A stretch of 61,016 nt of DNA from a virus (taxonomy: Duplodnaviria; Caudoviricetes). The notes under the pieces were generated by a model. It worked only from the letters and a program-made list of their open reading frames with translations. It did no database searches and was not told the DNA's origin. Position 1 is the first letter of the stretch. Every line of letters starts with the position of its first letter. This document shows positions 1 to 59,117 of this stretch, piece after piece. Location of the stretch: the IMG/VR virus record IMGVR_UViG_3300043438_001546, positions 1-61,016 of that record, one strand, 5' to 3'. The translations under genes and the position numbers were made by a program.

Positions 1-29
1 ACTTTGCTAAGTGTTGTGATTGTTTTCAT
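1..29 (-). CDS. 5' end of a hypothetical protein (MKTITTLSK...), runs off the window
   Basis: ATG at 29 on the minus strand with an AT-rich leader; same orientation as neighbours; only 9 codons visible. Confidence 0.35.
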
Positions 30-132
30 ATAACTATATAATTTAGACTAGTAAATAAAAATTGAGCTACTGCTCTTTTAAAGATATGGCAGGAGTGATG
101 CTTTCCCATGCATAAAAGAACACATTATACAT

Positions 133-173
133 AAAAAATACCCTAATCTTCTTTGTGTGATGAGATTAGGGTA
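133..173 (-). terminator. Intrinsic terminator-like hairpin
   Basis: Inverted repeat TACCCTAATCT/AGATTAGGGTA followed on the minus strand by a T-run. Confidence 0.55.
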
Positions 174-258
174 TAATAAGTACATGGTATTCTTCTCGTG
201 TAAACAAGAATAGCCTTAATAAGCTCCTTATCAAGCCGTTAAGAGGCCTTATAGGGAC

Positions 259-459
259 TTAAAAGTCTACACCTTCACTGTATCCGCACTTAGCTAAGAA
301 CGGTGCTTCGGTTACTACTATACAGTAGGTTTTTTCCCATTTAACAAGGAAATGAACTTTGTGTGTTAGTGCTAGCAATCTGAAGTCATAGTATTCTCTG
401 GAAGACATCTTGCATTCCACTGTGAAGTTTTGTGAGTAATCTGTTTTGTTTTGTGACAT
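259..459 (-). CDS. Small hypothetical protein (66 aa)
   Basis: ORF track; AT-rich leader typical of Bacteroidota translation starts. Confidence 0.6.
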   Translation of the reverse strand: MSQNKTDYSQNFTVECKMSSREYYDFRLLALTHKVHFLVKWEKTYCIVVTEAPFLAKCGYSEGVDF

Positions 460-496
460 TTTATGATAGTATTTAGTTTATAAAAATTTACTTGTT

Positions 497-847
497 CTCC
501 CCTTGATGATAGTAACTAGAAGGCCAAGGGAGTTTGAACCGTAGGTTCAGCCTGCGGAGCATTGCCCGCGGCAGGCGAGCAGAGGTAAGCCCAGCGGCAT
601 AGGAACTGCAAGTTCCTATTGAGCGACAGTGTGGTATTCAGGTTATGCAACACTATGGGCTACTAACTAATTGAATGGGATTCAGGTAGTGCATACCATG
701 GGCTACTAATCTAAGGAGTCTGAACCTTGGTTCAGCCCTCGGAGAGAGAGGGATGTGTCGTTGGCCATGCGGCCAGAAACCGTCAAGGTTTCTACGAGCT
801 TTTGTTTAATATGAATAACCCACGTCACACCGTAGTGCAACGTGGGT
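497..847. other. GC-enriched non-coding region with dense short hairpins (possible structured RNA or ssDNA signal)
   Basis: Inverted repeats at 535-549, 551-575, 599-619, 720-735, 775-793 and 818-847; no convincing ORF. Confidence 0.55.
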
Positions 848-862
848 ATATCCAATCTGAAA

Positions 863-1474
863 TTAGAAATTGATTTCAGGTAGCTTAACAGCGTCAATGT
901 CTTTGGCTTTGCTTTTAGCTGTGATTTCAGCTGTGGCATCAACCAACGTCATACCATATTTCAACGCATGTCGCGCTGAGGCTGTGGTAAGTGTTTCCTG
1001 AAACGCAGCAATTTGTGCATTAAGATTTGTAATCTTTTCATCAGCACCCCAATTGACACGACCAACATAATAACCCTTATCAGTTAGTTCAATAGTATCT
1101 GCTTTTAAAGCGAATACTTGTCCCAACTCAATTGTCATTGCTTTAAGACGCATGTCTTGACCAACAACAACAAAGGAATTACCATATTGAAATTTAGCAC
1201 CGCCTTTCTTTGTCTTACCAATGAACGGTAAGTGTAAAAGAGCACCAAATTTATCACTTGTTTCAACACCCTCCAATTCCAATACAGGAACAGATGTAGT
1301 AGTTGAAACAATAGTTTCTTCAACAGAATAATCAGCGTGAGCTTGAATTTCAGCAACCAATGCATCAGCAACGTCTTCGGTAAGACCTGCAATTTTAGCA
1401 TTAGTTAATTTTGTTGAAGTGATTAAATTTTTGTTTGCCTTAATCAAAGCAATTTTTTCTGACATAGTTGTCAT
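863..1474 (-). CDS. Hypothetical protein (likely start MTTMSEK at 1474; ORF open to 1534)
   Basis: Long ORF with natural protein composition; family not recognised. Confidence 0.75.
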   Translation of the reverse strand: MTTMSEKIALIKANKNLITSTKLTNAKIAGLTEDVADALVAEIQAHADYSVEETIVSTTTSVPVLELEGVETSDKFGALLHLPFIGKTKKGGAKFQYGNSFVVVGQDMRLKAMTIELGQVFALKADTIELTDKGYYVGRVNWGADEKITNLNAQIAAFQETLTTASARHALKYGMTLVDATAEITAKSKAKDIDAVKLPEINF

Positions 1475-1576
1475 GGTAGTGTTGCGTTTTATACCCGCCG
1501 GTTTTAATAAAAAAAATTGTAGCCTTTCACGCAAGGCATATAGCGAGTGACAAACCCCCGAAGGGTGGCGAAGCCC

Positions 1577-1609
1577 AAAGTCACTTGTGACTTTAAGTTT
1601 AGGATAGAG
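1577..1609. promoter_or_regulatory. Conserved hairpin + AAGTTTAGGATA motif, copy 1
   Basis: AAAGTCAC-TT-GTGACTTT-AAGTTTAGGATAGAG; second copy at 2452-2484 with compensatory changes. Confidence 0.65.
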
Positions 1610-1746
1610 AATGTGAGGTGTGGTTGAAGTGTGGGAGAAGCGGCATAGTGCCGAGGAACGAGGCTGCTTGCCGCGTGTGTTGGGTGTTTGTTTGAGTGAT
1701 AGTAAACACCACTACCACTACACAATGGGTGTTGCATCTATGTCCC

Positions 1747-1778
1747 CAAAAAAAAAGGAAGAGCCGCAGCCCTTCCCT
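1747..1778 (-). terminator. Intrinsic terminator
   Basis: Minus strand GGAAGGGC-UGCG-GCUCUUCC followed by a long U-run, just after the stop of 1784-1954. Confidence 0.85.
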
Positions 1779-1783
1779 TAATA

Positions 1784-1954
1784 TTAATTTCTGTATGCAC
1801 TTGATCTACCTTGTGCTTTCTTTATACTTTTATCTACATGGTATTTCTTAGTATGGCAAGACTTTGCAGATCCACAAGAGGTTAAAAACAATATTGCTGT
1901 AATGATTAGGATAGTCCATAAGTAGAACATACCAACTGAGGCTTGACGTTTCAT
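1784..1954 (-). CDS. Small putative lipoprotein (56 aa)
   Basis: Hand translation MKRQASVGMFYLWTILIITAILFLTSCGSAKSCHTKK...: basic N-terminus, hydrophobic stretch, lipobox LTSC; followed by a terminator. Confidence 0.7.
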   Translation of the reverse strand: MKRQASVGMFYLWTILIITAILFLTSCGSAKSCHTKKYHVDKSIKKAQGRSSAYRN

Positions 1955-2044
1955 AATGATTTGATTTTAAAGACACCGCTTTTGTGTGTGCCTTGGTTAA
2001 TTAATAAATTCTTTTTCCAATGGCACAATGCCTTTGTTGGAAAA

Positions 2045-2076
2045 TTGAATGACTCCACAACCGTGGAGCCATTCAA
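2045..2076 (-). terminator. Hairpin, terminator-like
   Basis: TTGAATGACTCCAC/GTGGAGCCATTCAA inverted repeat just downstream of 2094-2264. Confidence 0.5.
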
Positions 2077-2093
2077 GTATTGCAACACAAACA

Positions 2094-2264
2094 TTAAGAC
2101 TTAGTGTTAAACAATGGTGAGATTATATTGACAATCATAATCATCAATGAAAGTGCAAGACCGGCAACAGCAAAGGTTAACTCTTCCTTAGAGTCAACAG
2201 CTACGATCTGGATAGCACATACGCCACTCATGATAATGAGCAGCAAATTAAGTAAATGGTTCAT
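2094..2264 (-). CDS. Small two-TM membrane protein (56 aa)
   Basis: Hand translation MNHLLNLLLIIMSGVCAIQIVAVDSKEELTFAVAGLALSLMIMIVNIISPLFNTKS. Confidence 0.65.
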   Translation of the reverse strand: MNHLLNLLLIIMSGVCAIQIVAVDSKEELTFAVAGLALSLMIMIVNIISPLFNTKS

Positions 2265-2281
2265 AATAAAATTTTTAAGGG

Positions 2282-2428
2282 TTAATTACTAAATACTTCA
2301 CATAATACTAATGGCATTATTAATGCAGGTACTGCAATTAAAGAAATAGCATAAGGTGTTATGTACATTAATAAGATTGGTGTTAGCACTAACAGTGCTG
2401 TAACCAACAAGGCAATAAATTTTTTCAT
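2282..2428 (-). CDS. Small hydrophobic membrane protein (48 aa)
   Basis: Hand translation MKKFIALLVTALLVLTPILLMYITPYAISLIAVPALIMPLVLCEVFSN; A-rich leader. Confidence 0.65.
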   Translation of the reverse strand: MKKFIALLVTALLVLTPILLMYITPYAISLIAVPALIMPLVLCEVFSN

Positions 2429-2451
2429 AATAATTTTTTTAAGGGTTTAGA

Positions 2452-2484
2452 AAAATCTCTTGAGATTTTAAGTTTAGGATAAAG
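2452..2484. promoter_or_regulatory. Conserved hairpin + AAGTTTAGGATA motif, copy 2
   Basis: AAAATCTC-TT-GAGATTTT-AAGTTTAGGATAAAG, about 23 nt upstream of the first minus-strand ATG. Confidence 0.65.
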
Positions 2485-2485
2485 A

Positions 2486-2616
2486 GTGGTGTGTAGTAAT
2501 AACCACTATTAATAAACATGTGTGGTGGCTGCCGTGTGTGGGCCTGCGTGTGTGGTGTGTGTGGTGGTGGCTCCCTCGGTGGTGGTGCGTGTGTGGTGTG
2601 TGTGTCCAGGTGTGTG
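2486..2616. repeat. TG-rich low-complexity tract with a 19-nt direct repeat
   Basis: TGCGTGTGTGGTGTGTGTG at 2545-2563 and 2586-2604; lies at the minus/plus strand switch. Confidence 0.85.
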
Positions 2617-2782
2617 AAGAACTCTTCCCTGGTGGAACTTTTTTGGGTTTTGATCTTGGATTTTTCTTTGAGGTGTGCTTGACATGGGGGGTACACCACT
2701 TCTTCTGTTGGACCGGGGGTTGAATATATAGTGACTCCACCCACATCCTCATACTCTCTGGTTCTAGTTTACCAAGAATTAT

Positions 2783-2790
2783 TATATTTG
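2783..2790 (+). promoter_or_regulatory. Bacteroidota -7 promoter element TATATTTG
   Basis: Matches TAnnTTTG; ATG 3 nt downstream. Confidence 0.6.
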
Positions 2791-2793
2791 CCT

Positions 2794-3099
2794 ATGGAAG
2801 ATTATGATTACATAGTGTTTTTAAAGAAGATGAAAGATAAAATATCAAAGTTTGAAACTAAATGGGATTTGTGTAACAAGAATACGGCTATTAGTTTATT
2901 TGATATGGATCGTCTTGCTACTAGATGTTCTTATGTGGGTAAGCTACAAGGGTTAATGAATAAAAAGGTTTTTTCTTTAGAGCAGATCAGAGAGTTGTAT
3001 AAATTAATTAGCAGTAAAGATGAGCAAGCAAGAAAACTTGGTATGGGAATCATTGATGGTAGAGTCCTTGCTAGAAAAAAATCTAAAAAGGTATTATGA
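2794..3099 (+). CDS. Hypothetical protein (likely start MEDYDY)
   Basis: ORF track 2731-3099; ATG at 2794 follows the promoter; ATGA overlap with the next gene. Confidence 0.65.
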   Translation: MEDYDYIVFLKKMKDKISKFETKWDLCNKNTAISLFDMDRLATRCSYVGKLQGLMNKKVFSLEQIRELYKLISSKDEQARKLGMGIIDGRVLARKKSKKVL

Positions 3100-4689: not shown

Positions 4690-5106
4690 ATGTGGATATT
4701 AGAAGGAAAAGAGTTCACTGAAGAAATGATTCCAGAAGGAACTGTTGGTTTTGTATATGAAATGGTTTCAATCATTGATGGTAGACCGGTTAGATACATT
4801 GGCAAGAAGAATTTTTATGCTGATGTCAAAACTAAACTAGGTAAAAAAGAATTACCTACAGATAAAAGGTTGAAGACTTACAAGCGTGTGAGAAAAACAA
4901 CCTACAAAAACTATTTCAGTAGCAATGAAGTATTAAAAAAAGCACATGCGGACGGAGTAACTATCAGAAGAGAAATATTACACATCTGTTTTGGTAAACA
5001 GGAGTTGTCTTATTATGAATGCAAATTCCAATTTGCCTTGGGCGTATTGGAAAGTGAAGAGTTCCTGAATGGGAACATACTTGGTAAATTTTTTAAACTA
5101 AAATAA
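4690..5106 (+). CDS. GIY-YIG-like nuclease
   Basis: GFVY...YIGKK motif, YxSS, later conserved E and N (FLNGNI). Confidence 0.75.
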   Translation: MWILEGKEFTEEMIPEGTVGFVYEMVSIIDGRPVRYIGKKNFYADVKTKLGKKELPTDKRLKTYKRVRKTTYKNYFSSNEVLKKAHADGVTIRREILHICFGKQELSYYECKFQFALGVLESEEFLNGNILGKFFKLK

Positions 5107-8083: not shown

Positions 8084-10858
8084 ATGGGAACTTTTATAAA
8101 AAGAGATCTGCCTAATGATGAATATCAAGCAGCAGTCTTATCTAATAATGCATCTGTTACAAATGTATTTGCAACTATTGCAGATTTACCTATAGTAACT
8201 GGTGAAGCAGATAGATTAGTATTTGATGTGAAGTATAATCAAACCGGAGGACTTGTAAAAGGTCAAGCAGTTTATGTTAGTGGAGCAAATGGTACTAACA
8301 TACTTGTTAGTAAAGCAGATTATACCACTGAAGCAACCTCATCTAAGACATTAGGTCTTGTAGTAGTAACTGGAGCAAATAACTTTCAAGGACAAGTAAT
8401 TTCTGATGGTTTATTATCTGGAATAGATACTTCTGCAGCAGGTGTTGCAGGTGATCCAGTTTGGTTAGGTCCTAATGGAACTTTGATATATGGATTAACA
8501 GCAAAGCCTTATGCACCAAATCACCTTGTTTTTATAGGGATAGTTACTAAAAAATCAGCTACGGTAGGTGAAATATTTGTTAAAGTTCAAAACGGTTTTG
8601 AGTTAGATGAACTTCATGATGTTCAGTTAAAAGGTACTGGTAATATTCCATTAGATGGAGATGTTTTGACGTATGAAGCAGCCACTCAGTTATGGAAAGC
8701 AAAACCTATTGTAAATCAAAATGATTCACCACTTGTATTTGTTATTGCAGCAACTGAAGGAGTACTAACAGGTACTCCAACTTATTTTAATGGTGTTGCA
8801 AATGACGGCATTGGAGCAAAATTAACAGCAACTTTAAATGGTGTGGTTTCCGATAATACATCTTTAGGTAGAATTGATACTAGTTATATTCCAGAAGTTG
8901 GTGATTTGATACTTGTTAAGAATCAAGTAAATCAATTTCATAATGGAGTTTATGAAATTGCAGATACAGGAAGTGTTTCTACACCATATATCTTAACTAG
9001 AAGTGTAGATATTGATGCTCCAGAAGAATTGTATCCATTACAAGTAAATGCATTTCAGGGATTAGTAAACGGTAGTAAATACTTTACTCAAACAAATACT
9101 GCATGGGGTAACACTACTCCACCTATAGTTGGATTTGCTGACATCACTTTTGCTCTTACCACACTTACTACAGCACCGTTACAAATAACATTTGTAGATA
9201 ATGCTACGTCTGTAGCACTTCCTATTTGCGTATATACATTAGGTACAGATTTAACTAAACCAGGAGTAGGTGCTACATTAAAAGCAACTGCTGCAGGTAC
9301 TTTAATTGTATCAGGAATGACAGCTGGTGCTAGTACAACATCATTAACACAATTTACAACATTACTTGTAAAAAATCAAGCTGAACCTCGTCATAATGGC
9401 ACGTATCAAGTAATTAATCCAGGAAGTGCAACATCAGCATGGGTATTAAAAAGAATAGATGAACTGGCTGCTGGATTTAATAAAGCATTAAGAATTGTAT
9501 TTTGTTCTCATAATACATCTGCTTTTGCAGGAACATATTTTACACCAACATGGAACCCAACTCTTTTAAATAAAAACATTGGTGTTACAGTAGGTATACC
9601 AGTACCATCAACTAACAGTATTGATTATGCTACTTATACTCCTCAAAATGGTAGATTTGGTATTGCCAATTCAAATGGTGCATATACATTTTATGCAACA
9701 TTATCTTCAGCAATGACTGCTGCATTATTAGGTCAAACTATTGAGATGTTTGCTGATGTTACAGAAGCAGGAGCTGTTGCAATTCCCTTAAAACAAGGAG
9801 TTGATATTAATGGTAACGGTCATACCTATACCTATACTAATAACTCTGGAACAATGTTTTCATATATTCTTACCGGTGGAGTTATTGTAACAACAATTAA
9901 TATACTGAATCTTAATATTGTAAGAACTAATACTGCATCTACTGCAGCTCCTGTATTTGGTTCATTTACAAATCCATCTGGAAGTGCTAGTACTACATTA
10001 AACTTTATTAATTCAACAGTTACTTATACAGCTACTTCTGGAAATACTCCAATAATACAATCAACGGCAGGAGCCTTTCATGTAGTAACAGTAAATGGAT
10101 TAACTTGTACTTCAAATGCATTAGGAACAGCTATAGCCTGTTCTTCTGCAAACTTTTGTACAATTACTTGCACTGGAGGTTCAATTGGTTATTCTGGAGG
10201 TACAATAAGTAATTCTAGAATAACAACTGCTTCAGGAAATGCAGTAGACGTTTCTACAGCTATTTCTTGTATAATTAGATGTACAACATCAGGAATAGGA
10301 GTTAGAGAGGGTAGTGCTACTGATACAACTATTACTACAAATACAGGAATCTGTATGGAATCTGGATTTGTTATAGCTCAAGGATTTGCAAACAGATGTA
10401 ATGCAAGTTCAACATCAGGAATTTGTTACAGAAGAGTTATTACTACAAATTGTACTGGAACAACAGGAGCTAATACTGTACTTGACCTTTGGTTTAACTA
10501 TAGTGATGGTACAGCTAAATTTCGTAGAAATTACTTTGTTTGTAATTCTGCAGTTCCCGCTGTAATTAATGGTACAGGTGGTGATTTTGAAATTGTAGAC
10601 TGCACTATAGTTCAAAATGGAACTGGTCCTGGAGTTAGACTATATGGATCTGTAGTAACTCATCCTCCTCAAGACGTTATAAATTGTACCATTATACTGC
10701 CACAAAGTAGTGCAGCAAATTGTATAACTGCATCAGCTTCACCAGGTAATGCAAGACTTATTAATAATAAATTTAAAGGAGCAACTACTCCTATAAATAC
10801 CAATGTACTACAGCTTGTAGTAAATACAATTGATAACCAAGGAAATATTTTATTATGA
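8084..10858 (+). CDS. Tail fibre/spike with a duplicated LVKNQ...HNGxY module and a C-terminal beta-helix-like region
   Basis: ELHDV...DGDVLTY fibre motif; two LVKNQxxxxHNGxY modules; T/S/C-rich repetitive C-terminus. Confidence 0.75.
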   Translation: MGTFIKRDLPNDEYQAAVLSNNASVTNVFATIADLPIVTGEADRLVFDVKYNQTGGLVKGQAVYVSGANGTNILVSKADYTTEATSSKTLGLVVVTGANNFQGQVISDGLLSGIDTSAAGVAGDPVWLGPNGTLIYGLTAKPYAPNHLVFIGIVTKKSATVGEIFVKVQNGFELDELHDVQLKGTGNIPLDGDVLTYEAATQLWKAKPIVNQNDSPLVFVIAATEGVLTGTPTYFNGVANDGIGAKLTATLNGVVSDNTSLGRIDTSYIPEVGDLILVKNQVNQFHNGVYEIADTGSVSTPYILTRSVDIDAPEELYPLQVNAFQGLVNGSKYFTQTNTAWGNTTPPIVGFADITFALTTLTTAPLQITFVDNATSVALPICVYTLGTDLTKPGVGATLKATAAGTLIVSGMTAGASTTSLTQFTTLLVKNQAEPRHNGTYQVINPGSATSAWVLKRIDELAAGFNKALRIVFCSHNTSAFAGTYFTPTWNPTLLNKNIGVTVGIPVPSTNSIDYATYTPQNGRFGIANSNGAYTFYATLSSAMTAALLGQTIEMFADVTEAGAVAIPLKQGVDINGNGHTYTYTNNSGTMFSYILTGGVIVTTINILNLNIVRTNTASTAAPVFGSFTNPSGSASTTLNFINSTVTYTATSGNTPIIQSTAGAFHVVTVNGLTCTSNALGTAIACSSANFCTITCTGGSIGYSGGTISNSRITTASGNAVDVSTAISCIIRCTTSGIGVREGSATDTTITTNTGICMESGFVIAQGFANRCNASSTSGICYRRVITTNCTGTTGANTVLDLWFNYSDGTAKFRRNYFVCNSAVPAVINGTGGDFEIVDCTIVQNGTGPGVRLYGSVVTHPPQDVINCTIILPQSSAANCITASASPGNARLINNKFKGATTPINTNVLQLVVNTIDNQGNILL

Positions 10859-19370: not shown

Positions 19371-22105
19371 TGGAAATATTAAACGCAATAGACTTAAAAA
19401 AAGGGAAGAAGACCAAAAAAAATAGATTTGGTGTATTTACCCAACCAATTCAATTTGTACCAGCAGATGAAAAAGATGATGAGTGGTCAAAATGGAACAT
19501 TGATTGGTTAGAGTGGCAAGGAATTAAGCAGATAGGTTCTAAAGCCAGACGCATAATGAAAAATTACAAACTTGCTAAAGGTGTAATTGATAAAACCGAT
19601 TATCTACCAGATGTAGAAAATGAAATGACTGAAATGCTTGATGTTCTTACTCAAGGGCAAAATGAAGCATTGGAGTTAAAGTTCTATCCAATTATTCCCA
19701 ATTTGGTTAATACACTGGTTTCTGAATTTGCAAAAAGAAATACCAAAGTTGATTACCGTGCTATTGATGAGTATTCATACAATGAGGTAATGGATAAAAA
19801 AACTGAAGCTATCAGTAAAGTTTTAGTTGAGTATGCTCAACAAAAGCTTATTGCTAAGATGGTTGAAATGGGATTAGATCCAAACTCAGAAGAAGCGCAA
19901 CAACAATTAAATCCAGAAGCATTAAAAAAACTTCCAGAAATTGAAGATTTTTATTCTAAAAAATATCAAACACTTGCTGAAAAATGGGCGGTAAAACAAC
20001 ATGCAATTGATGTGAACCGTTTTAAAATGGACGAGATGGAAGAAACAGCTTTCAGAGATTCATTAATTACAGACAGTGAATTTTGGCATTTTAAAATGCT
20101 AGAAGATGATTACAACATTGAGTTATTAAATCCAGCACTTTCATTTTATCATAAGTCACCAAATGTGCATTACATTTCTCAAGGTAACTGGGCTGGTTGG
20201 ATTGACATGCTTACCATTGCTGATGTTGTAGATAAGTATGGATACTTAATGACAGCTGAACAGTTAGAATCTCTTGAGTTATTGCATCCAGCACGTTCAG
20301 CAAGATACATGATTGATGGTATTCCAAATGATGGTTCATTATACAATACTGATGACAGTTATGAATCTAACAGAAGATCAGGTGTAGATATGCGCAGACA
20401 TCTTTCTTTTGTAGAAAACGCACATGATCCTCATGATGTTGTATCTTACATTGTTGGACAAAGTGAACATGCAGGAAACTTACACACCGTTGAATTATTG
20501 CGTGTATCTACATCTTACTGGAAAACTCAAAGAAGAGTTGGTCAGTTAACTAAGATTGATGAAGATGGTGCTGTTGTTACAGAAATCATAGATGAAAACT
20601 ATGTAGTAACTACAAAGCCTGTTTACAATAAAACATTTGAGAAAAAAGAAACTGGAGATAATTTAATTTTTGGTGATCACATTGATTGGTTTTGGATTAA
20701 TCAAGTGTGGGGTGGTGTAAAAATTGGAAACAACAGAACTATCTTTAATACAGAAACAGATACAGATTTTGATCCAATCTATTTAGGAATTGACAGAGAA
20801 AAACCAGGTCCACTTAAATTCCAATTCCGTGGAGATAAAACTATGTATGGAGCCAAACTTCCAATTGAAGGAAGAGTGTTTTCTGATAGAAATACCAAGT
20901 CAACATCATTTGTTGATTTGTTAAAGCCCTCGCAAATTGGATATAATATCTGCAACAATCAAATAGCAGATATTCTTGTAGATGAACTAGGTTCAGTAAT
21001 TGTACTTGATCAGAATGCAATCCCAAAACATTCAATGGGTGAAGACTGGGGTAAGAATAATCTTGCTAAAGCTTATGTGGCAATGAAAGACTTTTCAATG
21101 CTTCCATTAGATCCAAGTATTGCTAATACAGAAAGTGCTACAAACTTTCAGCATTATCAAGTTTTGAATCTTGAACAATCAAACAGATTGATGTCAAGAA
21201 TCCAATTGGCTAATTACTTTAAGAGTCAGGCCATGGAAGTTGTTGGTTTAAATCCTCAAAGAATGGGACAACAACTTGGACAAATAAATACAGCAACAGG
21301 AATAGAACAGGCAATGTCTGGTTCTTATGCTCAAACTGAAACTTATTTTATTCAACACAGTGATCACTTAATGCCGCGTGTCCATGCAATGCGTACTGAC
21401 TTAGCTCAGTTTTATCATTCAACAAAACCATCTGTTAGATTACAAGGAATGATTTCTCCAGATGAAAGAACAAACTTTGAAATTAATGGCACTGATTTAT
21501 TATTGGTTGACTTAAATGTATTCTGCTTGACCAATGCTAATAATAGAAATACACTTGAACAACTCAAACAAGTGTTCATGAGTAACAATACTACTGGAGC
21601 TTCTGTTTATGATTTAGGTGAATTGATGCAATCAGATTCTATTGGTTCATTGAATGTCATTCTTAAAGGAATTGAAACCAAATCTGAAGAAAGAAGAAAA
21701 GAAGAAATGCAAGCTCAACAACAAGCACAAGAAGCTGAAATTGCTGCTAAGAAAGCTGAGAAACAAATGGAAATGGATCATGTTTCTAGAGAAAAAGAAA
21801 AAGATCGCAGATCTAGATTACTTGAAGCTGAAATTAAAGCGGCTGGTTATGGAGCTATGCAAGATGTTAATAAGAATCAACAATCAGATTTCCAAGATGT
21901 ATTAAAAGATGTTAAACAATCTGAACAATATGCTGATACTATGAACTTTAACAGGGAAAAAGAATCAAGCAAAACAGATTTGCATCAACAAAAACTAGAC
22001 ATTGAAAGAGAAAAAATGATGAATGAATCTAGAAACAAACAAATGGAATTAGCAATTGCTAAGGAAAATAAAAACAGATTTGATGAGAAAAAACCTAATA
22101 AGTAA
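19370..22105 (+). CDS. Portal protein
   Basis: 911 aa between TerL and scaffold/MCP; YPIIPN, TATGIEQA motifs; coiled-coil C-terminus. Confidence 0.9.
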   Translation: MEILNAIDLKKGKKTKKNRFGVFTQPIQFVPADEKDDEWSKWNIDWLEWQGIKQIGSKARRIMKNYKLAKGVIDKTDYLPDVENEMTEMLDVLTQGQNEALELKFYPIIPNLVNTLVSEFAKRNTKVDYRAIDEYSYNEVMDKKTEAISKVLVEYAQQKLIAKMVEMGLDPNSEEAQQQLNPEALKKLPEIEDFYSKKYQTLAEKWAVKQHAIDVNRFKMDEMEETAFRDSLITDSEFWHFKMLEDDYNIELLNPALSFYHKSPNVHYISQGNWAGWIDMLTIADVVDKYGYLMTAEQLESLELLHPARSARYMIDGIPNDGSLYNTDDSYESNRRSGVDMRRHLSFVENAHDPHDVVSYIVGQSEHAGNLHTVELLRVSTSYWKTQRRVGQLTKIDEDGAVVTEIIDENYVVTTKPVYNKTFEKKETGDNLIFGDHIDWFWINQVWGGVKIGNNRTIFNTETDTDFDPIYLGIDREKPGPLKFQFRGDKTMYGAKLPIEGRVFSDRNTKSTSFVDLLKPSQIGYNICNNQIADILVDELGSVIVLDQNAIPKHSMGEDWGKNNLAKAYVAMKDFSMLPLDPSIANTESATNFQHYQVLNLEQSNRLMSRIQLANYFKSQAMEVVGLNPQRMGQQLGQINTATGIEQAMSGSYAQTETYFIQHSDHLMPRVHAMRTDLAQFYHSTKPSVRLQGMISPDERTNFEINGTDLLLVDLNVFCLTNANNRNTLEQLKQVFMSNNTTGASVYDLGELMQSDSIGSLNVILKGIETKSEERRKEEMQAQQQAQEAEIAAKKAEKQMEMDHVSREKEKDRRSRLLEAEIKAAGYGAMQDVNKNQQSDFQDVLKDVKQSEQYADTMNFNREKESSKTDLHQQKLDIEREKMMNESRNKQMELAIAKENKNRFDEKKPNK

Positions 22106-37374: not shown

Positions 37375-39561
37375 ATGGGATGTTCATCTTGTCAACAAAA
37401 TAACCATGTAGTACCTACTACACATGTACATAATTCAACTACCCAAACGCATTGTGAATGCGCATGTGGTTGTGATGAACCAGTGTGTCCAACTCCGCAA
37501 CCGTGTACTGAAATTACAGATAGCAAGTGTATTATTTATACTGATGCACCTATCAAATGTGAAGAAGATACAGTTGTTACAACAAATGCAAGTGTTTCTA
37601 CAGCTCTAAATCAAATTGTAACATACTTTTGTGAAAACGGTGGTCAAGCAGGGCCTGCGGGTCCAGCCGGACCAGCTGGAGAAATAGGACCACAAGGTCC
37701 AATCGGACCAACAGGTCCACAAGGTCCTACAGGTCCAACTGGAGCTACAGGAGCAACAGGTCCACAAGGTCCACAAGGTCCTGTAGGTGTTCAAGGAGTT
37801 CAAGGACCACTTGCGGCTAATGCTTTAATTTATAAAAGGGATAATCTTACAAATCCTGGAGCTTGGAGTGCTAATGCTAGTCTTTTTAACAGTGGGATAA
37901 CTCAACTATTTATAAATAAAACATCCTACCTAGGATATAATGGAACTGTTGGTTCTACAAACAATGCTTTAGATTGGATAAATGCAGTTGACGCACAAGA
38001 TTATATTCAAATTGTTGATGCATTCTCATCTACTAATTATGGAATATATTCAGTTGTATCTAAATTTGATCAGGGTACAGCTTATTTATTTAATGTATCA
38101 TTTATTTCAGGTAGTGGAGTAGGTAATAATTTTATTAACTATGCAATCAGTTATATTAAAAATGGAGCAACAGGACCCGCTGGACCACAGGGACCTCAAG
38201 GTAATCCTGGAACTGGTGCGGATGTATTATTAACATCAATAGGTACTGGACTTTCATTAATTACTGATGGATCAGGACCATCATTACAAATAAGAGCTCT
38301 AAATGGTGGAGCTGGAGTTACTGTTGGTGGTTCACTCAGTGGAGAACTTGTAATTATTAATACTGATCCTGGTTCTTCTCAAAACATATTTAAAAATGTA
38401 GCAGTATCAGGACAGAGTACAGTAGTAGCAGATAGCAATAATGATACTTTAACATTTGTGGCTGGTACAGGTATCGGAATTACTACTGATGCTACTACAG
38501 ATTCAGTAACTATTACTAACTCTGCACCTAATGTTAATCAAAATCTTTGGGCAACTATTGCTGCTGACACAGGTAATACTACAGCAAACACTACTACAGA
38601 TACATTAAATGTAGTTGGAGCAGGTGGTGTATCTACTTCAATCATTGGAGATACTTTAACAATTACTGGTTCAGGTGGAGGAGGTAGTAATATTTATAAT
38701 TCAAATGGAACACTGACTTCAAATAGATTTGTTTTTGGCAGTTTTTTTGATTTGCGGTTTTTGGAACACAATTCATTTGTTTTTCAAACCTCTGCAACTG
38801 GAATTGACACGCAAGATGGAGTATGGTTTGACATTGAAGAAACAAACATTCTGACTGGTGGAACACTTTTCAAAATAAGAAAAAAAGGAGGAGCAGGAAT
38901 TGGGAAAGACAGATTTTCAGTTTTGAAAAATGGTCAAGTTAATTTTAATGAACAATATAGTTTTCCTTTGCTTGATGGCTCAATTAATCAAGTTTTAACA
39001 ACTAATGGCGGGGGTACTGTTAGTTGGCAAACTGTTGGCAGTAGTCAATTTACTTATGAGATTGGACAATATGTTCCTAGTGAAGGTGGTGTTATTATGC
39101 ATAGATGGTTATCTAATTCTCCATTAGGTGCACCAACAGCAGGGACTGTTCAAAATTATTTAGTTGTAACTTTAAGTGATTTAGGTAGCACTTACATTTG
39201 GGGAGCTGGCGGTACAAGTTATTTTGCAACAAGTACGTTTAATGGTCAATCAAATACTACAGCAATAGCAGGGTTCGCACCTACAAGTGCAGCTGCGGCT
39301 TGTGATACATTAACAAGCGGTGGTAAATCAGATTGGTATTTACCAGCTATAGATGAATGGCAAATATTATTTAATAACAGATGGGCTGTTAATCAAAGTT
39401 TATTATCTTTTGGTGTAGAAATAACATATGCATTATATTGGACAAGCACCGAAGTTAGTTCAAACAATGCTTTTACTTTTAATACAATTAATGGTATAAT
39501 TGACAATGCTACTAAAAGTAATATATTATCAGTTAGAGCTGTAAGAAGATTCAGTATATAA
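37375..39561 (+). CDS. Collagen-like fibre with a Cys-rich N-terminus and C-terminal DUF1566/C-type-lectin-fold domain
   Basis: Gly-X-Y runs; two ADxxxDTL repeats; DWYLPAIDE...YWTSTE...VRAVRRF. Confidence 0.85.
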
Positions 39562-39573
39562 AATATATAAACC

Positions 39574-40065
39574 ATGTGTGAAAAATGTGAAAATAATAAT
39601 TGTTCTGGAAACTGTAATGTAATTCCTAAAGGACTTCGTGGCCCTAGAGGTTACAAAGGAGATAAAGGTGATCAAGGGGAACAAGGTCCAATTGGTCGCA
39701 CAGGACCACAAGGTCCGTCTGGTAATCAAGGATTGTCTGGTTTATCTGGAGCACCTGGTTTACAAGGTCTAACCGGTCCAATAGGTCCAACAGGATTACC
39801 AGGTACTGCTGGATTACCGGGAGCCAATGGAATTAATGGAACAAATGGAAACGATGGAGCACCGGGAGCAACTGGCGCACAAGGTTTAATAGGCGATACT
39901 GGATATTCTGGTCGTGGTGTTGCAGTCTTTGTTCAAGTAAGTCAACCTACACTTGCTGACTTTAATGCCTTGTACGGTGGTGTTGATGGATTTGGTATAC
40001 AGTTTATTCCAGGAAACAATGCTTTAAGACCAGGCGATATTTGGATTCAATCATGTACTCCGTAA
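39574..40065 (+). CDS. Short collagen-like protein with a Cys-rich N-terminus
   Basis: MCEKC..C..C then an uninterrupted Gly-X-Y run; C-terminal PGDIWIQ. Confidence 0.85.
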   Translation: MCEKCENNNCSGNCNVIPKGLRGPRGYKGDKGDQGEQGPIGRTGPQGPSGNQGLSGLSGAPGLQGLTGPIGPTGLPGTAGLPGANGINGTNGNDGAPGATGAQGLIGDTGYSGRGVAVFVQVSQPTLADFNALYGGVDGFGIQFIPGNNALRPGDIWIQSCTP

Positions 40066-40068
40066 TTT

Positions 40069-41868
40069 ATGAGCAATTTTAAAATATTTGATGGTACAAA
40101 TTGGTTAGATCCATGTGATTGCAATATTAGTATATTAGATGTTGATGGGATTTCTTATCAACAAATTAATCCAAATAATTGTATTGTAAGTTATTTTGAT
40201 GGAACTAATTGGTGTCCAATAACATGTCCATGTGAATGTCCTGCGGGTTATACATTTAATCCTGCAACTAATTCATGTGAAACACCTGGATCAACTGTTC
40301 CAGCAATACCAAGTGGCGGAACAACTTATGACATTATTGAAGGAAATACAACACTTGCATACGGTCAATTTGGTGCAAGATTGTACGAGGACATAACAAC
40401 AAAGCAGTTTCCAATTGTTGGTTTTAAACCATCTGCATACGAAATACGTGAAAATTCTGGTACAGGTGCATTAATTACTATTGACACCGCTATTACAACA
40501 GGAAGTGATATTTTTGTTGCACAAGGATCAACCGTAAAAGGAAGATTAAATAGAGCAGGTATTTGGGGAGAAATTACAGGAGGTGCGACTCGATGGCCAG
40601 ATGATATTTGGTTTCCGGTAGAATTTTGTGTTGAACTTACAACTGCAAAAACTTATATTTTTGCTATAGCTGGTGATAATCAAATTAGAGCAAGTATAAA
40701 GTCAGATACATTTAACCCTTTATCGCAATCTGGTGCAGGTCCTTGGACAACAAATATTGTAAATTTATTTGCGTGTGCATTGGCAAATTGTTCGACAGGT
40801 GGTTCAAACCCGGATCCTAATGAAAATATTGGTGAGCCATTTAGATGGTGGCACATGTTTCCTATTACATTACCAGCAGGTAGTCATGTTTTTATTTTAG
40901 AAGGGTATAACATATCTGGACAGTATGCCTTTGGTGCAGAAATTTATGATATTTCTACAACAGATATGATTGATTGGATGACAAATACAACTCCTTTTCC
41001 AACACTTTCTGATCCTCCTAAAAATGATAATATACCTGCATTTGAACAAACAATTTTATTTACAACAAAAAGTTTAGTTCAGACTCCTCCATTATTAGTT
41101 CCGGGACCAAGTCAAACTATAACTTGGTCATGTCCTCCAAATGGTGTGTTAGATTTGTGTAATGGATCACCACAATGTATTGTTCCTGGTGATTCAATTC
41201 CTTGTGGTCAAGGACAAGCAATAACAAGTACAACAGAAATAAATATTTGGTTTGATAACTCAGGATCAATGAATAGTACATTGTCACCTTTGCAAATTAT
41301 GCAATCAACATTGCTTCAAACATGCTTGCTTCCTATTTATAACAATGATGTTACTCTTTATAATGAAAGAGTAAAAGTTTTAAATATGCTCAATGGTTCT
41401 GCTTGGAACTATAATGAAAGATTTGTAAGATGTCTTGCTACAGAAAGAAACTTTAATAGAGCAGTTGATACAACTGTAAATCAAGTTATTAATTTAACTT
41501 TTGCTGATGAATCAGATGTATATGGTTATCCGGATAATACACCATTTAATAATAGTTCACGAACATCTGGTTATGATGCGGATATAGCATATTTGAGAAA
41601 TATTATGTCAACTGTGGCATATACCATTAAAGGAACTGCGTTTAGAGTTAACACTGGACCAAATTCATTTACTGGATTTAGAGGATTAACTCAGGCTACT
41701 TTTGTAAATAATGGTGCATATTCAGTTCCAAATAATGTTTCTGATTACTATACTATAAACTTTAATTGTAATTTAGATACACTTGCTGGATCAACTCCAA
41801 CTTACTATAGAGATCAGATAGTTGCTGCTCTTACAGCTTTAGGAATAAGTATCCCGGTGTGTCCATAA
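40069..41868 (+). CDS. Multidomain adhesin-like virion protein (EGF-like, PA14-like, vWA)
   Basis: FDGTNW twice; CECPAGYTFNPATNSC; AGDN...LPAGSHVFILEGYN; IWFDNSGSM MIDAS-like motif. Confidence 0.65.
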   Translation: MSNFKIFDGTNWLDPCDCNISILDVDGISYQQINPNNCIVSYFDGTNWCPITCPCECPAGYTFNPATNSCETPGSTVPAIPSGGTTYDIIEGNTTLAYGQFGARLYEDITTKQFPIVGFKPSAYEIRENSGTGALITIDTAITTGSDIFVAQGSTVKGRLNRAGIWGEITGGATRWPDDIWFPVEFCVELTTAKTYIFAIAGDNQIRASIKSDTFNPLSQSGAGPWTTNIVNLFACALANCSTGGSNPDPNENIGEPFRWWHMFPITLPAGSHVFILEGYNISGQYAFGAEIYDISTTDMIDWMTNTTPFPTLSDPPKNDNIPAFEQTILFTTKSLVQTPPLLVPGPSQTITWSCPPNGVLDLCNGSPQCIVPGDSIPCGQGQAITSTTEINIWFDNSGSMNSTLSPLQIMQSTLLQTCLLPIYNNDVTLYNERVKVLNMLNGSAWNYNERFVRCLATERNFNRAVDTTVNQVINLTFADESDVYGYPDNTPFNNSSRTSGYDADIAYLRNIMSTVAYTIKGTAFRVNTGPNSFTGFRGLTQATFVNNGAYSVPNNVSDYYTINFNCNLDTLAGSTPTYYRDQIVAALTALGISIPVCP

Positions 41869-41880
41869 ATAATATATGAT

Positions 41881-42378
41881 ATGTGTGAATGTAAAGGAAA
41901 TTGTGCTTGCAAAAGCAATGAAATAAAATTAAGAGGACCAAGAGGATTTGTTGGACCGGCTGGACCGCAAGGCAATCTTGGACCGCAAGGTATTCAAGGA
42001 TTGCAAGGTGCGCCCGGGCCCCAAGGACCACAAGGACCACAAGGACCAGCAGGAATTGTAAATACTCAACTTGCTGTTAAAATTAATTATACAAAAGGAA
42101 CACTTAGTGCTGATGTAATTGGGGGAACAGCTCCGTTTACTTACTTATGGGATTGGGCTGATGTTATAGTAAGTGATGACACTAATCGTTTTTTTATATT
42201 TGTGGGTTCTGTTACAAATGCCAGCGCAAATATTTCACTTAATTCTATATCACCTGCATTTGATGCGTGTAATGCAATAAGTACTGGTTCAATTAGTATG
42301 GCAAGAGTTACTGTAACAGATTTTTCAGGTAAAACAGCAATAGGTACATTTTTATTAATGAATATTGCTTGCGAATAA
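41881..42378 (+). CDS. Collagen-like protein with a C-terminal SprB/PKD-like domain
   Basis: [10 protein letters not shown], Gly-X-Y run, [10 protein letters not shown]...VTVTD. Confidence 0.8.
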
Positions 42379-52531: not shown

Positions 52532-52533
52532 TT

Positions 52534-54870
52534 ATGGGTAAGTACAAGATACAAGGATTTCCTAATCAAGAAGTACCTAAAGTAACTTTATCAAAAGTTC
52601 TTGGTCCTGTGAATAGGAAAATAGCTAATGTTGAAGCCGAGAAAGGTGAAACAGTAGTTACAAACATGAGCAGAGGTATTAATAATATCTATGAGATGTA
52701 TTCTATTGGCGGTAAAAAACATAGCCAAGGCGGAACTCCTTTGACTTTACCTACTGACGGTGATAAGGAATCTGATGGAACTTCGTTTATCTTTAGTGAT
52801 AACAAGAAGATGATTGTTAAAGATCCTGTAATTTTGGATTATTTTGGTGTAAATCCAAAGAAGCCACAAACATTTGCAGGTATTTCTAAATCATGGTTAG
52901 GCGCAATTAATACTTCTAAACAAATTCTTATTGATGACACAGCAGATAAAGTAAGTAAGAAATCAGCTCAAATGTCAATGGACAATGCTGCATTTAAAAT
53001 TGCTGCTTTAAAATTACTTCAAGAATCACGCAAAGGATTTAAAGACGGTGTACCTAATGGTTTATCTCCGTTCTTTGATAAGTTGCAGATTGATCCTAAC
53101 GAGATGTTTGCAATGAATCAACAAGATGCAGGTGCAGCTAATCAAGCTGTTGCTAAAGCTTTTGGTGGCATGGCTAAAGATTTTGCTGCTACTAATGAGC
53201 AATATCCTTTTCCTTCTTTAGCTATGGGTGGCGAGTTACCACATTATGTTGATGCTGGTGCTGTTACTGACGCAAACAATGAAAAGAAAAAAGAAGAACC
53301 TAAGAAAGATGAAATTACTTGGGGGACAGCAAATGCTACATCTAAAAAACAATATGACTATGTACAAAATGTTTTAGGAAAAGATGAAGGATTTAAAGAA
53401 GCTTTGTATCAAGAATACTTAAAGGCAGCAGAACAACCAGACAATTTTGGTAGAGGTTATAATGCCATGTTTGCTAAAAATCCAAATAGCAAGTCTACCA
53501 TTGTACGAAAAGAAAAAGAGCAAGTTTATCAAGATTATCTTGATTTTCAAAAAAGAAACTTGATGCTTCAATCTCATGGTAGAAATGTATTAACAACCGA
53601 ACAAAATCCAATTAAGGGACAAGTATCTAATAAAGATGTAACAGAGTGGTCTAAAACACATGGTGTTCCATTACCTGATATTAATACGGCAACTTCTCAG
53701 CAGTTATCTTATATTGCGTTTAGCAACTTAGCTAAAAATAGAGATCAGTACGGAGAACAATTAAAGAACATCTTAAAACCATTTGGTGCAAATCAAGTTG
53801 GTAAAAGTGATGAAAAAATTGCAGGTTCAAAAGAATATGGAACTATTTCAAAAGCAGATGGTGCTTATACAAATACAACTGCAGGTGAGATTAGTAATTT
53901 TACTGAACCTAAAGGCCCATGTCCTAAATGTCCAGATGGAACTATTCCAGAAAGACAACCTGATGGATCATGTCCGTGTACTCCAGTAATAGATAAACCT
54001 TGTCCAACATGTCCTGATGGAACAACTCCGGTTAAGAATGCAGATGGCACATGTCCTCCTTGTGAAGTAAAACCACCAGATTACAAAAAATTAGGACCAA
54101 CAACTCCTCTTGTAAATCCTTATGGCTTTAGGAGAGAAGACTTGGCTTCACTTAGTAGAGCAACACAAGCTAGATTTGAAATTCCTGAATTACATCCTTG
54201 GGCTAAGTCTGCTGAAGTTGTTATGCCAGATCGTGCATACTATTCACCAGAGCGAACTATTGCTGCTAAAAATGAGCAATTGAATCAAATGATGCAAGGT
54301 GTAAAAGCATTTGGAAATGCGCAATCTGCTGGTGCTACAGCTATGGCTTTAAGTGGTCAAGCTTATGGTGATGTAGCAAATGCAATTAGTGATTATGCAG
54401 ACAAGAATGTAGGCGTGTTTAATGCAGGTGAACAATACAATACACAACTGGCAAATGCTAGAAATGCACAAGATGCACAGTTAGCAACAGGCCTGTATGA
54501 TAAAGAAAACACTTTAAAGCAAAGTCTTGCAAATTCTATTAGTGCTGCTAAAGATAAAATCACACAGCTTTCTAATCAAGCGTACACTAATGCATCAAAC
54601 ATTTACAATTTAAATAGTACTAATGAAAACTTTAAGAAAGATCCATTTACAGGTATTATTACTAAAATGAATGATAGAGCAATTACACCTGTTAAAGATA
54701 ACTCACAAGACTTTGGTCAAGAGTTTAATGCATTTGCTAAGTCAATGCCTTCGGTGAGTGGTGATTTGCAAATGAAAGCATTTCTTGCAATGAAATCTGG
54801 TAAATATGTAATGGAACCAGACGATCAAGTTACTAAGGCAAGTGAGTTGAATAATACCAGTGTAGGCTAA
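52534..54870 (+). CDS. Cargo/ejection protein
   Basis: NVEAEKGE, GKKHSQGG, FIFSD motifs of crAss-like cargo proteins; two CPxCPDG repeats. Confidence 0.75.
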   Translation: MGKYKIQGFPNQEVPKVTLSKVLGPVNRKIANVEAEKGETVVTNMSRGINNIYEMYSIGGKKHSQGGTPLTLPTDGDKESDGTSFIFSDNKKMIVKDPVILDYFGVNPKKPQTFAGISKSWLGAINTSKQILIDDTADKVSKKSAQMSMDNAAFKIAALKLLQESRKGFKDGVPNGLSPFFDKLQIDPNEMFAMNQQDAGAANQAVAKAFGGMAKDFAATNEQYPFPSLAMGGELPHYVDAGAVTDANNEKKKEEPKKDEITWGTANATSKKQYDYVQNVLGKDEGFKEALYQEYLKAAEQPDNFGRGYNAMFAKNPNSKSTIVRKEKEQVYQDYLDFQKRNLMLQSHGRNVLTTEQNPIKGQVSNKDVTEWSKTHGVPLPDINTATSQQLSYIAFSNLAKNRDQYGEQLKNILKPFGANQVGKSDEKIAGSKEYGTISKADGAYTNTTAGEISNFTEPKGPCPKCPDGTIPERQPDGSCPCTPVIDKPCPTCPDGTTPVKNADGTCPPCEVKPPDYKKLGPTTPLVNPYGFRREDLASLSRATQARFEIPELHPWAKSAEVVMPDRAYYSPERTIAAKNEQLNQMMQGVKAFGNAQSAGATAMALSGQAYGDVANAISDYADKNVGVFNAGEQYNTQLANARNAQDAQLATGLYDKENTLKQSLANSISAAKDKITQLSNQAYTNASNIYNLNSTNENFKKDPFTGIITKMNDRAITPVKDNSQDFGQEFNAFAKSMPSVSGDLQMKAFLAMKSGKYVMEPDDQVTKASELNNTSVG

Positions 54871-54915
54871 TAACTAATTTTTGTTTAGGGTTTAATTAAT
54901 ATATTTACAAGAAAA

Positions 54916-56757: not shown

Positions 56758-56768
56758 AATTTTAAGTT

Positions 56769-59105: not shown

Positions 59106-59117
59106 TGCTCAACTAAA

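Follow-up and report, generated by a model that had tools for sequence, protein, structure and literature searches.

A conserved hairpin-and-box element at the head of the leftward genes of an uncultured crAss-like phage is a candidate early promoter

The record IMGVR_UViG_3300043438_001546 of the IMG/VR collection, a stretch of 61,016 base pairs (bp) which was analysed as a whole and is called the window below, carries near its left end two copies, A and B, of a short element in which a perfect DNA palindrome is joined to a box of conserved sequence. Judged from the comparison with related phages, this is a real, selected and structure-bearing cis element, and it is the founding example of a small family of such sites. 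By its genes, the phage is an uncultured member of the crAss-like phages (Crassvirales). What does the element do? The initial annotation took the two copies for hairpin promoters of the RNA polymerase that such phages carry in the virion. The analysis bore out that a conserved cis site heads the presumed early, replication-side gene block, and it showed in addition that the type of this site follows a distant module with a DFDID motif; the promoter role itself stays putative. The reading that we favour, tentatively and knowing that it may well be wrong, is that the elements are phage-specific early promoters, the version with the virion polymerase included.

Copy A reads AAAGTCAC-TT-GTGACTTT at 1577-1594, followed by AAGTTTAGGATA (1595-1606) and GAG, and copy B reads AAAATCTC-TT-GAGATTTT at 2452-2469, followed by AAGTTTAGGATA (2470-2481) and AAG. 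As had been described at the outset, the two stems differ at two base pairs, each of them compensated on the opposite arm, while the flank of 12 nucleotides (nt) is identical in both window copies. The copies make up a repeat of 37 nt with 84% identity (repeat family D16), and 875 nt separate them. The tip on the plus strand is CTTG, a sequence known from the passages cited here to form a compact tetraloop in DNA, closed by a C-G pair (PMC9975016). Could such an arrangement arise by chance? The exact 12-mer has two occurrences in the whole record, and no extra copy is found when one mismatch is allowed. At up to two mismatches, 13 matches are observed and 12.2 are expected, so that loose matches to the 12-mer carry no meaning. 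Perfect 8-2-8 palindromes are found three times in the window (at 1577, 2452 and 16950), compared with 1.94 +/- 1.34 in shuffles. The palindrome alone is thus not rare, and the significance of the element comes from the joining of palindrome and box and from its conservation in relatives.

The initial annotation had proposed to scan relatives for the motif, and the element does recur there. Viral and metagenome collections were scanned by motif and by protein, and a covariance model was then applied; this gave at least 14 window-type copies in at least nine contigs, the window included. Copy A is present in the window and in the relatives L116, L119, L172, L211 and L220; copy B is present in the window and in L116, L117, L119, L130, L199, L211 and L220. 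The hairpin sequence of copy A is the same in L116, L119, L172 and L211, and L220 has a compensated variant with a third, intermediate stem (AAAATCAC/GTGATTTT). The hairpin of copy B is the same in all seven relatives that have it. All eight stem positions pair in all 14 copies, and the three stem variants are joined by two independent double changes. When 13 copies were aligned, 80 of 80 cells were paired, with six of the eight stem pairs invariant and two altered on both sides. The covariation score was reached by none of 500 shuffles, and slid controls were 14-54% paired. At the variable stem positions it is therefore pairing and not sequence that has been retained, as was first supposed from the two window copies. 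The box varies across the 14 copies at positions 1, 2 and 13 only. For the 34-nt core, the mean identity is 0.96 in copy A (10 pairs) and 0.985 in copy B (28 pairs); for the 120 nt to the right of the core, the mean pairwise identity is 0.59 and 0.62, respectively. The conservation of the core persists where the neighbouring protein drops to 39% identity. Covariation of the stem, together with a core identity above that of the flank, indicates that structure and sequence are both under selection, which for the core is strongly purifying.

The individual scans give an idea of how narrowly the window type is distributed. A 15-mer scan of viral contigs hit at least 113 stretches, and among the matches listed none had more than five of the eight arm positions paired. 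An 18-mer scan with R positions hit eight stretches, the hairpin being found solely in the three other contigs of the window-type clade. The metagenome scan hit at least 118 stretches with 119 matches, and those listed among them include six real copies and one chance match (6/8 positions paired). A scan of genome contigs hit 24 stretches, none of them with the element, and the protein of 203 amino acids (aa) that is encoded downstream of copy A, used as a query both singly and in aligned form, added no viral contig to the set. The covariance model, R1, run over 130,445 nt, recovered the 13 known copies and one new one (copy B of L220). Its 15-bit match in the relative G001 (L122:14318-14376, E 0.13) was taken as chance, and on the genomes G005-G009 it gave nothing real.

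Is there any other function written in the same nucleotides? Small open reading frames (ORFs) rich in His and Thr run through the box and end in HSLS-stop. The single A/G difference of the box is synonymous in this frame. However, the frame stays open for no more than 10-13 codons in L199 and L117 and the peptides are not conserved, and a coding role of the box was rejected. With Rfam 15, the window gave no match at the gathering score, and positions 1-3000, searched at E up to 1, gave solely a chance microRNA match (19.9 bits, where 77 are needed). To the right of copy B, a consensus fold is 86.7% paired versus 51-60% when slid; 10 of 500 shuffles reach that pairing, the covariation term is unfavourable, and the minimum-free-energy z-scores of the tract on the two strands (-0.63 and -0.47) do not beat shuffles. 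These statistics are too weak for a conserved RNA structure there to be used.

How far does the family extend beyond the window type? A terminase scan found 75 related loci, several of them on near-complete genomes. The genomes G005, G006 and G008 have terminases 96-98% identical to that of the window, yet they are without the window-type element. The element that they have instead, placed alike and with the same strand orientation, is of another type, in which a CC-GNA-GG mini-hairpin (a stem of 2-4 bp with a GNA triloop) is followed by a T-r-r-ATTTACATT box. A third type is that of G007, AAATGAC-TT-GTCATTT with a ATTTATGTTTTA box behind it, and a fourth is that of G010, with 6-bp stems, GAA, AAA or GAGA loops and a T-r-r-T-w-TAGAAT box. 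The G010 stems covary among the four copies (ACTACC/GGTAGT, ATTACC/GGTAAT, ATGACC/GGTCAT). All types have in common a hairpin closed by a C:G pair and a TAnnnT hexamer (TAGGAT, TACATT, TATGTT and TAGAAT), with roughly 5 nt of spacer between the two. The composite pattern is found three times in G005 (117 kb, 98% complete), on one strand and all at 28.3-30.1 kb. In G010, where the search covered the first 120,000 of 120,528 bp, it is found four times at 57.8-59.2 kb, in the middle of the record, plus one match on the opposite strand, the scan being for the sequence pattern only. Each cluster spans no more than about 2 kb and stands at the start of a leftward block of replication genes, and the spacing between the junction copy and the first leftward ATG stays tight in all four types. 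The G+T-rich flanks pointed out in the initial annotation are present in this window, where 2511-2680 is the sole stretch in 61 kb with a G+T content of at least 78% per 100 nt. They are absent from the other element types, which share the A-poverty of the junction tract alone; G+T richness, not being retained, was dropped as a part of the element.

If the elements are promoters, then which enzyme would read them? The comparison of the window with G005 is informative in this respect. Their terminases are 96% identical, the portals 95.5%, the capsids 98.7% and the muzzle proteins 90%, and the proteins of the ejection region are 26-78% identical, with 38% for the N-terminus of the giant protein. 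The mosaicism is sharp: between window 49622-61016 and 71.8-92 kb of G005, divergence begins past the muzzle gene, with the head genes at 95-99%. The replication block is available from G001, which has window-type elements, and 19 of its 21 ORFs match G005 at 56-97%, most of them at 78% or above. Two separate regions thus differ between the window lineage and G005, the junction cassette, including the protein of unit A (the leftward unit behind copy A), and the region of the ejection proteins. In G005 there is an ORF of 4054 aa with GADFDIDK, and in G010 one of 3678 aa with GADYDIDK; DFDID is given as the motif of the virion polymerase of phage phi14:2 in the part of the report cited (bioRxiv 10.1101/2020.03.07.982082). 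Over the 764-aa stretch around the motif, G005 and G006, which have the same element type, are 97% identical, and the identity is 60% to G007, 43% to G009 and 40% to G010. The giant protein of G009 is 87% like that of the window. From these sequence comparisons, elements and candidate polymerase change type together, across conserved DNA on both sides. Co-variation with a distant DFDID module is the pattern expected of an RNA polymerase and its promoters.

These results may be put together as follows. The sites form a family of stable hairpin, 5-nt spacer and TAnnnT-containing box, which in this clade is present solely as two to four clustered copies heading the leftward gene block, by the divergent junction. 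The hairpin may be recognised as a structure, either extruded or on a single-stranded template, and the adjacent box as a sequence. The reader would be a lineage-variable phage protein, for which the RNA polymerase packaged in the virion is the likeliest candidate. Firing may be in either direction. For leftward firing speak three points: behind each copy stands a leftward unit with a leftward terminator at its end, a promoter is needed past the terminator at 1779-1754, and the junction copy keeps its tight spacing to the first leftward start codon.

Several points weigh against this reading and should be noticed. TAnnnT, which reads on the plus strand alone, stands at a fixed spacing in every type, and in G010 a rightward terminator lies just before the second element; both would fit rightward promoters of the sigma type. 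As free DNA the hairpins are weak, at -3.4 to -4.6 kcal/mol. What is more, template switching is reported to be able to produce compensated changes in a palindrome in one step (PMC8794818). The window contains no polymerase gene: a conserved DFDxD-like motif was found in none of its eight large ORFs (there is one loose DLDCD match, in the muzzle protein), and no match of the large ORFs in Pfam, PHROG or PDB points to a polymerase. The last ORF, open at its 3' end, is the N-terminus of an unannotated protein of 2100-3100 aa without a conserved motif. In the relatives, the DFDID/DYDID protein is itself without a sequence match in PDB or PHROG. The link between element and polymerase is indirect for the window, since it goes through G009, whose contig ends before the junction. 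Also, the informative contrast, in which the head genes are nearly identical, amounts in essence to a single evolutionary event, and adaptation to the host could by itself make early genes and ejected proteins co-vary, both being fast-evolving modules. The protein of unit A changes with the element type as well, which makes it an equally placed candidate reader.

The gene units around the elements are collected in Table 1. The position upstream of minus-strand units, which the initial annotation had stressed, was confirmed: copy B is separated by 23 nt from its ATG (2428) and belongs to a divergent intergenic region of 365 nt, and copy A lies 102 nt from the ATG at 1474 and, in the leftward direction, 145 nt past the terminator of unit B. 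The gene content between A and B differs among relatives, with a spacing of 632-1072 nt. The 203-aa protein of unit A belongs to no Pfam or PHROG family. Its AlphaFold model has a predicted local distance difference test score (pLDDT) of 74.5, which is of medium confidence; the core looks weakly S1/OB-like (Foldseek best E 4.7e-3, Z 5-6.3) and the C-terminal helices weakly resemble ANTAR antiterminators (Z 5.2-5.4), all these fold matches falling below the informative level of the tools themselves. The equivalent protein of G005 has 222 aa and is barely related (no BLAST match; hhalign E 0.014).

Table 1. Elements, gene units and signals at the left end of the window, with the host-type boxes of the rightward genes
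Feature	Position	Strand	Remarks
Hairpin/palindrome, copy A	1577..1594		8-2-8, plus-strand CTTG tip; DNA fold -4.5 kcal/mol
Box, copy A (AAGTTTAGGATAGAGA)	1595..1610		16 nt
G+T-rich, fast-evolving tract right of copy A	1610..1745		G 0.34, T 0.27
Hairpin/palindrome, copy B	2452..2469		8-2-8
Box, copy B (AAGTTTAGGATAAAGA)	2470..2485		16 nt
G+T-rich, A-poor tract right of copy B, in divergent intergenic region	2485..2640		A 0.13, G 0.38, T 0.33
Leftward unit B	1784..2428	-	four small ORFs, 48/56/47/56 aa; two membrane-like, one lipoprotein-like
Intrinsic terminator of unit B	1779-1754	-	11-bp stem, then T run
Small conserved attenuator-like hairpin and T run, leader of 203-aa gene	1522..1537	-	compensated stem change in L119
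Leftward unit A	863..1474	-	203-aa protein
Intrinsic terminator of unit A	818..847	-	
Candidate alternative leftward promoter (TTGGTA-like, 15-17 nt, TATnnn-like)	2745..2775	-	predicted
Host-type -7 box TATATTTG	2783..2790	+	first rightward gene, ATG at 2794
Same TAnnTTTG box type	3585, 3984, 6872, 14197, 22189, 25529, 31441	+	precedes rightward genes

Is there any other promoter for the leftward units? No TAnnTTTG box was found on the minus strand ahead of either of them, and such boxes are nearly absent from 21 kb of leftward genes in G001; by this search for the box, a host-type promoter for the leftward units of the window is absent. The predicted arrangement at 2745-2775 is found at the same place in L116, L117, L119 and L130/L211, and L199 shows its first block only. 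It would be a second type of leftward promoter (TGGGTAA ... TATnnn), conserved at one place and not recurrent elsewhere, and it is regarded as a candidate only. Around it, three blocks within 2640-2790 are conserved in all relatives: GAAGAACTCTTCCCTGGTGGA with T residues behind it, CATGGGGGGTACACC, and TTACCCA, which precedes the rightward -7 box by about 12 nt and, when read on the minus strand, makes a possible -35/-10-like pair.

Some further features of the leftward side may be recorded here. The conserved leader that separates copy A from the 203-aa gene (1505-1576, minus strand) has two hairpins, CCC-TTCG-GGG and GCCT...AGGC; the GCCT...AGGC hairpin has eight T behind it, is attenuator-like and shows the compensated change of L119. 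Between the terminator of unit A and the next leftward gene there is a GC-rich non-coding stretch of about 330 nt (480-860), found also in G001 (20571-20827) and in L356 (about 9160-9420). It has two repeated module pairs, GGAGT.TGAACC..GGTTCAGCC hairpins and ..CATGGGCTACTAA.. units, and resembles a structured RNA, without an Rfam match. An insertion of 170 nt in L117, between copy B and the first gene, carries a related TGGGCTACT unit. A nearly identical 20-nt hairpin loop (AACATC-r-TTTGTTCAGTTAA) with different stems is seen in L364 (about 850-905, G010) and in L117 (about 795-840). The T-rich side of this hairpin is on opposite strands in the two lineages, so that it is probably more than a plain terminator.

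As for the phage itself, CheckV estimates that the window holds about 51% of a genome. Its assignment to Crassvirales follows from the crAss-type terminase, portal and capsid (phrog_6681 at 2.9e-56, phrog_6547 at 1.2e-84 and phrog_11589 at 2.7e-31) and from the muzzle protein (PF25731 crAss_MUZ at 4e-26). It is distant from cultured crAss-like phages: the best match of its terminase among 50,697 phage records has 24.6% identity, and on the DNA level the window has no match among these records. From about 2794 on, the genes are rightward and structural, and the genes left of 2428 are leftward. The relative G001 reaches 20 kb further left, and its leftward block codes for a DnaB-like helicase, an AAA_24 protein, a Toprim protein and an SNF2-type helicase. 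All eight TAnnTTTG boxes noted ahead of rightward genes have the terminal G, and an extended box ttatTATATTTG is common to those at 2783, 3585, 6872, 14197 and 25529 (plus strand). The box at 2783 is just 3 nt from the ATG, which suggests a leaderless or near-leaderless mRNA for the first rightward gene. One of the first rightward genes codes for a SegE-like GIY-YIG homing endonuclease (4690-5106, plus strand; PF19835, E 1.4e-19), and the tail-fibre-like genes at 37563-42063 (plus strand) hold collagen-like arrays of a 9-nt (Gly-X-Y) repeat (repeat family D1, 25 copies).

There is a further question of concern: could the elements be something other than phage-specific early promoters? They might be rightward promoters of the host RNA polymerase or of a sigma variant, with the tracts to the right transcribed into short non-coding RNAs; the box would then be a -10/-7-like TAnnnT, and the hairpin in the spacer would be an operator or a substitute for an upstream element. 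Promoters of the primary sigma factor of Bacteroidota have a -7 box TAnnTTTG, with TTTG at -33 some 19-21 nt upstream. The initial annotation held that the elements do not match this box; that is right for the minus strand and only partly so for the plus strand, where TAAGTTTA fits it at seven of the eight positions. Such a fit is made by TAAGTTTA in 11 of the 14 copies and by TAGGTTTA in two more, TAnnnT follows 5 nt behind the hairpin in all four element types, and copy B has TTTA 19 nt upstream, at the place of a -33 element. G010 also offers a rightward 11-bp stem with a T-rich stretch, some 440 nt past element 1 and 20 nt ahead of element 2, with no evident ORF between elements 1, 2 and 3, and to the right of copy B one plus-strand helix is fully paired in seven of seven sequences through G-U changes. 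Against this, the final G of TAnnTTTG is replaced by A in 14 of 14 copies, copy B of L220 reads TTAGTTTA and has lost the TA, the -7-like reading is lost in the G010 type, and copy A is without a -33 element. The tracts that would be transcribed are poorly conserved and fold no better than shuffles (z = -0.63 and -0.47). A site read by the host should not change its type in concert between near-identical phages, and the leftward units would be left without any promoter. On balance this explanation seems unlikely to us. A somewhat less likely one is that the element acts as RNA, in leftward transcripts begun further upstream, for example at the 2745-2775 candidate promoter. It would be a nut/put-like box-then-hairpin that loads a factor for passing terminators, or its role would lie in protection or processing of the 5' end, and the unit-A protein would be a candidate binder. 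The order on the minus strand is indeed box and then hairpin; copy A is 40 nt upstream of the leader hairpin with its U run and also upstream of the terminator at 847-818, and copy B is upstream of that at 1779-1754. On minus-strand RNA, the hairpins of G005 and G010 would have what we take to be a UNCG-type tetraloop. The weak S1/OB-like core and ANTAR-like helices of the unit-A model (Z 5-6.3 and 5.2-5.4) would suit an RNA-binding reader, this protein changes alongside the element type, and the candidate leftward promoter upstream of copy B is conserved. But these fold matches are below the informative level of the tool, the promoter candidate is not of the host type, none of the 14 stems has a G-U pair, and a strong terminator precedes copy A, no candidate for a promoter being found between the two. 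Also, the sites are in tandem in one direction, 875 nt apart, and to our knowledge nut and put sites are not arranged so.

The symmetry of the palindrome raises the possibility of a duplex operator beside a promoter core, with the arms as half-sites for a dimeric regulator of a swappable early cassette. The 8-2-8 palindrome has a fixed centre, and two to four sites head the early block as in the immunity and early control regions of phages; variable small-gene cargo stands behind a conserved control region, and the site type is swapped along with the early cassette. Yet the symmetry is perfect in all 14 copies and all three variants, which makes an operator, the second choice of the initial annotation, possible but less likely, and one protein that binds both A and B would need no mirrored changes. 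The G005 type, a stem of 2-4 bp with a GNA triloop, is implausible as a dimer site, and no helix-turn-helix protein was found among the neighbouring ORFs scanned. Taken together, an operator is improbable. What of DNA replication? The elements adjoin the block coding for the DnaB-like helicase, Toprim primase-like and AAA_24 proteins, and to the right of them, in the window, the non-template strand is rich in G and poor in A, so a hairpin for loading a primosome or primase might be imagined, or a promoter whose unwinding tract gives rise to an R-loop origin. This is very improbable in our view: G-richness is lost in the other element types, there are several copies, each ahead of a gene unit, and there are no iterons. 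In addition, the elements are replaced while the replication genes stay 78-97% conserved, which argues against a replication protein as the reader.

If the reading as phage-specific early promoters holds, what would follow? The one experimental study of what the crAss-like virion RNA polymerase recognises, on phi14:2, gave no common motif at early starts, and we found no paper that ties early promoters of Crassvirales to hairpins. This clade supplies a defined and structure-constrained candidate signal, with two to four copies per genome at one place and at least four natural types, which makes cognate versus non-cognate recognition a question for the bench. It is rather doubtful, though worth stating, that with these elements promoters of a virion RNA polymerase of Crassvirales are defined by sequence for the first time, that a logic like that of phage N4 has arisen independently in a two-barrel enzyme, and that cognate pairs switch between phages whose head genes are otherwise 95-99% identical. 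Were that true, at least four polymerase/promoter pairs (the window, G005, G007 and G010 types) would be natural specificity-swap experiments. And should the reader turn out to be the host enzyme or some other early protein, the family would still show where the first genes of a widespread group of uncultured phages are controlled, and that this region is exchanged as a module.

How does the element compare with known systems? In the T7 group of phages, there is one promoter type per genome, and it changes with the polymerase between related phages. Here too, the element type is uniform within a genome and shifts with the candidate polymerase. The T7-group promoters are duplex, spread over the genome and read by single-subunit enzymes, whereas the sites described here are few, clustered and hairpin-bearing. 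With the promoters of Bacteroidota the plus-strand box shares seven of eight positions in 13 of 14 copies, and it differs in the final A of all 14, in the missing -33 element of copy A and in being lineage-specific. The nut site of lambda consists of a transcribed boxA and then a boxB hairpin, bound by an N-type protein together with host Nus factors. As in lambda nut, and in HK022 put as far as the cited part of PMC9378689 describes it, box is followed by hairpin on the leftward RNA, in few copies and in early operons that contain terminators; unlike there, no N-like protein was found, the copies are in tandem in one direction, and no promoter is evident upstream of copy A.

Closer parallels are found among the virion polymerases. 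In Thermus phage P23-45, a two-barrel virion polymerase fused to the tape measure uses a conserved AT-rich motif, as stated in the cited portion of PMC10770324. The resemblance lies in the polymerase, which shares its structural class with the crAss enzyme, and in an AT-rich linear motif that is specific to the phages carrying the enzyme and precedes the pre-early genes. The P23-45 motif differs in that no hairpin is described for it in that portion and in that starts and occupancy were measured there, the element here being known from its sequence. Phage phi14:2 is of the same viral order, and the close relatives of the window have the DFDID-type motif in a giant protein as it does; a small early region with long non-coding stretches is a further likeness. 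According to the sections cited (bioRxiv 10.1101/2020.03.07.982082), its virion polymerase gp66 favours single-stranded templates, which would suit a hairpin signal, and its authors found no common motif upstream of the early starts. In the first 9 kb of phi14:2 we found no analogous hairpin family or G+T tracts, and the window terminase is less than 25% identical to those found in cultured crAss-like phages.

The comparison with N4, finally, is one that the initial annotation had drawn, and it stands for the logic and fails for the hairpin geometry of the window copies. The early promoters of N4, as presented in the cited part of PMC4496689, have a stem of 5-7 bp, a 3-nt loop and a GC-rich heptamer, with conservation spanning -17 to +1, and their variable stem bases need just maintain the hairpin. 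The window stem is unlike this in being A/T-rich, with 8 bp and a TT centre (7 bp if the loop is CTTG), and in having a 16-nt box outside the hairpin. The enzymes differ as well, that of N4 being a T7-like single-subunit polymerase helped by gyrase and single-stranded DNA-binding protein and the crAss enzyme being of the two-barrel kind; with a DFDID/DYDID signature in the candidate enzyme, homology to the N4 enzyme is not expected. Transcription from an N4 promoter begins at a set distance of a few bases past the hairpin, on the strand that folds into it. What the two systems have in common is a small DNA hairpin joined to conserved bases, with stem positions that are free to vary as long as they pair, in a few copies clustered in a small part of the genome (three in N4, two to four here). 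The element types of the relatives come nearest to the N4 loop, with GAA, GCA or AAA triloops closed by C:G on stems of 2-6 bp.

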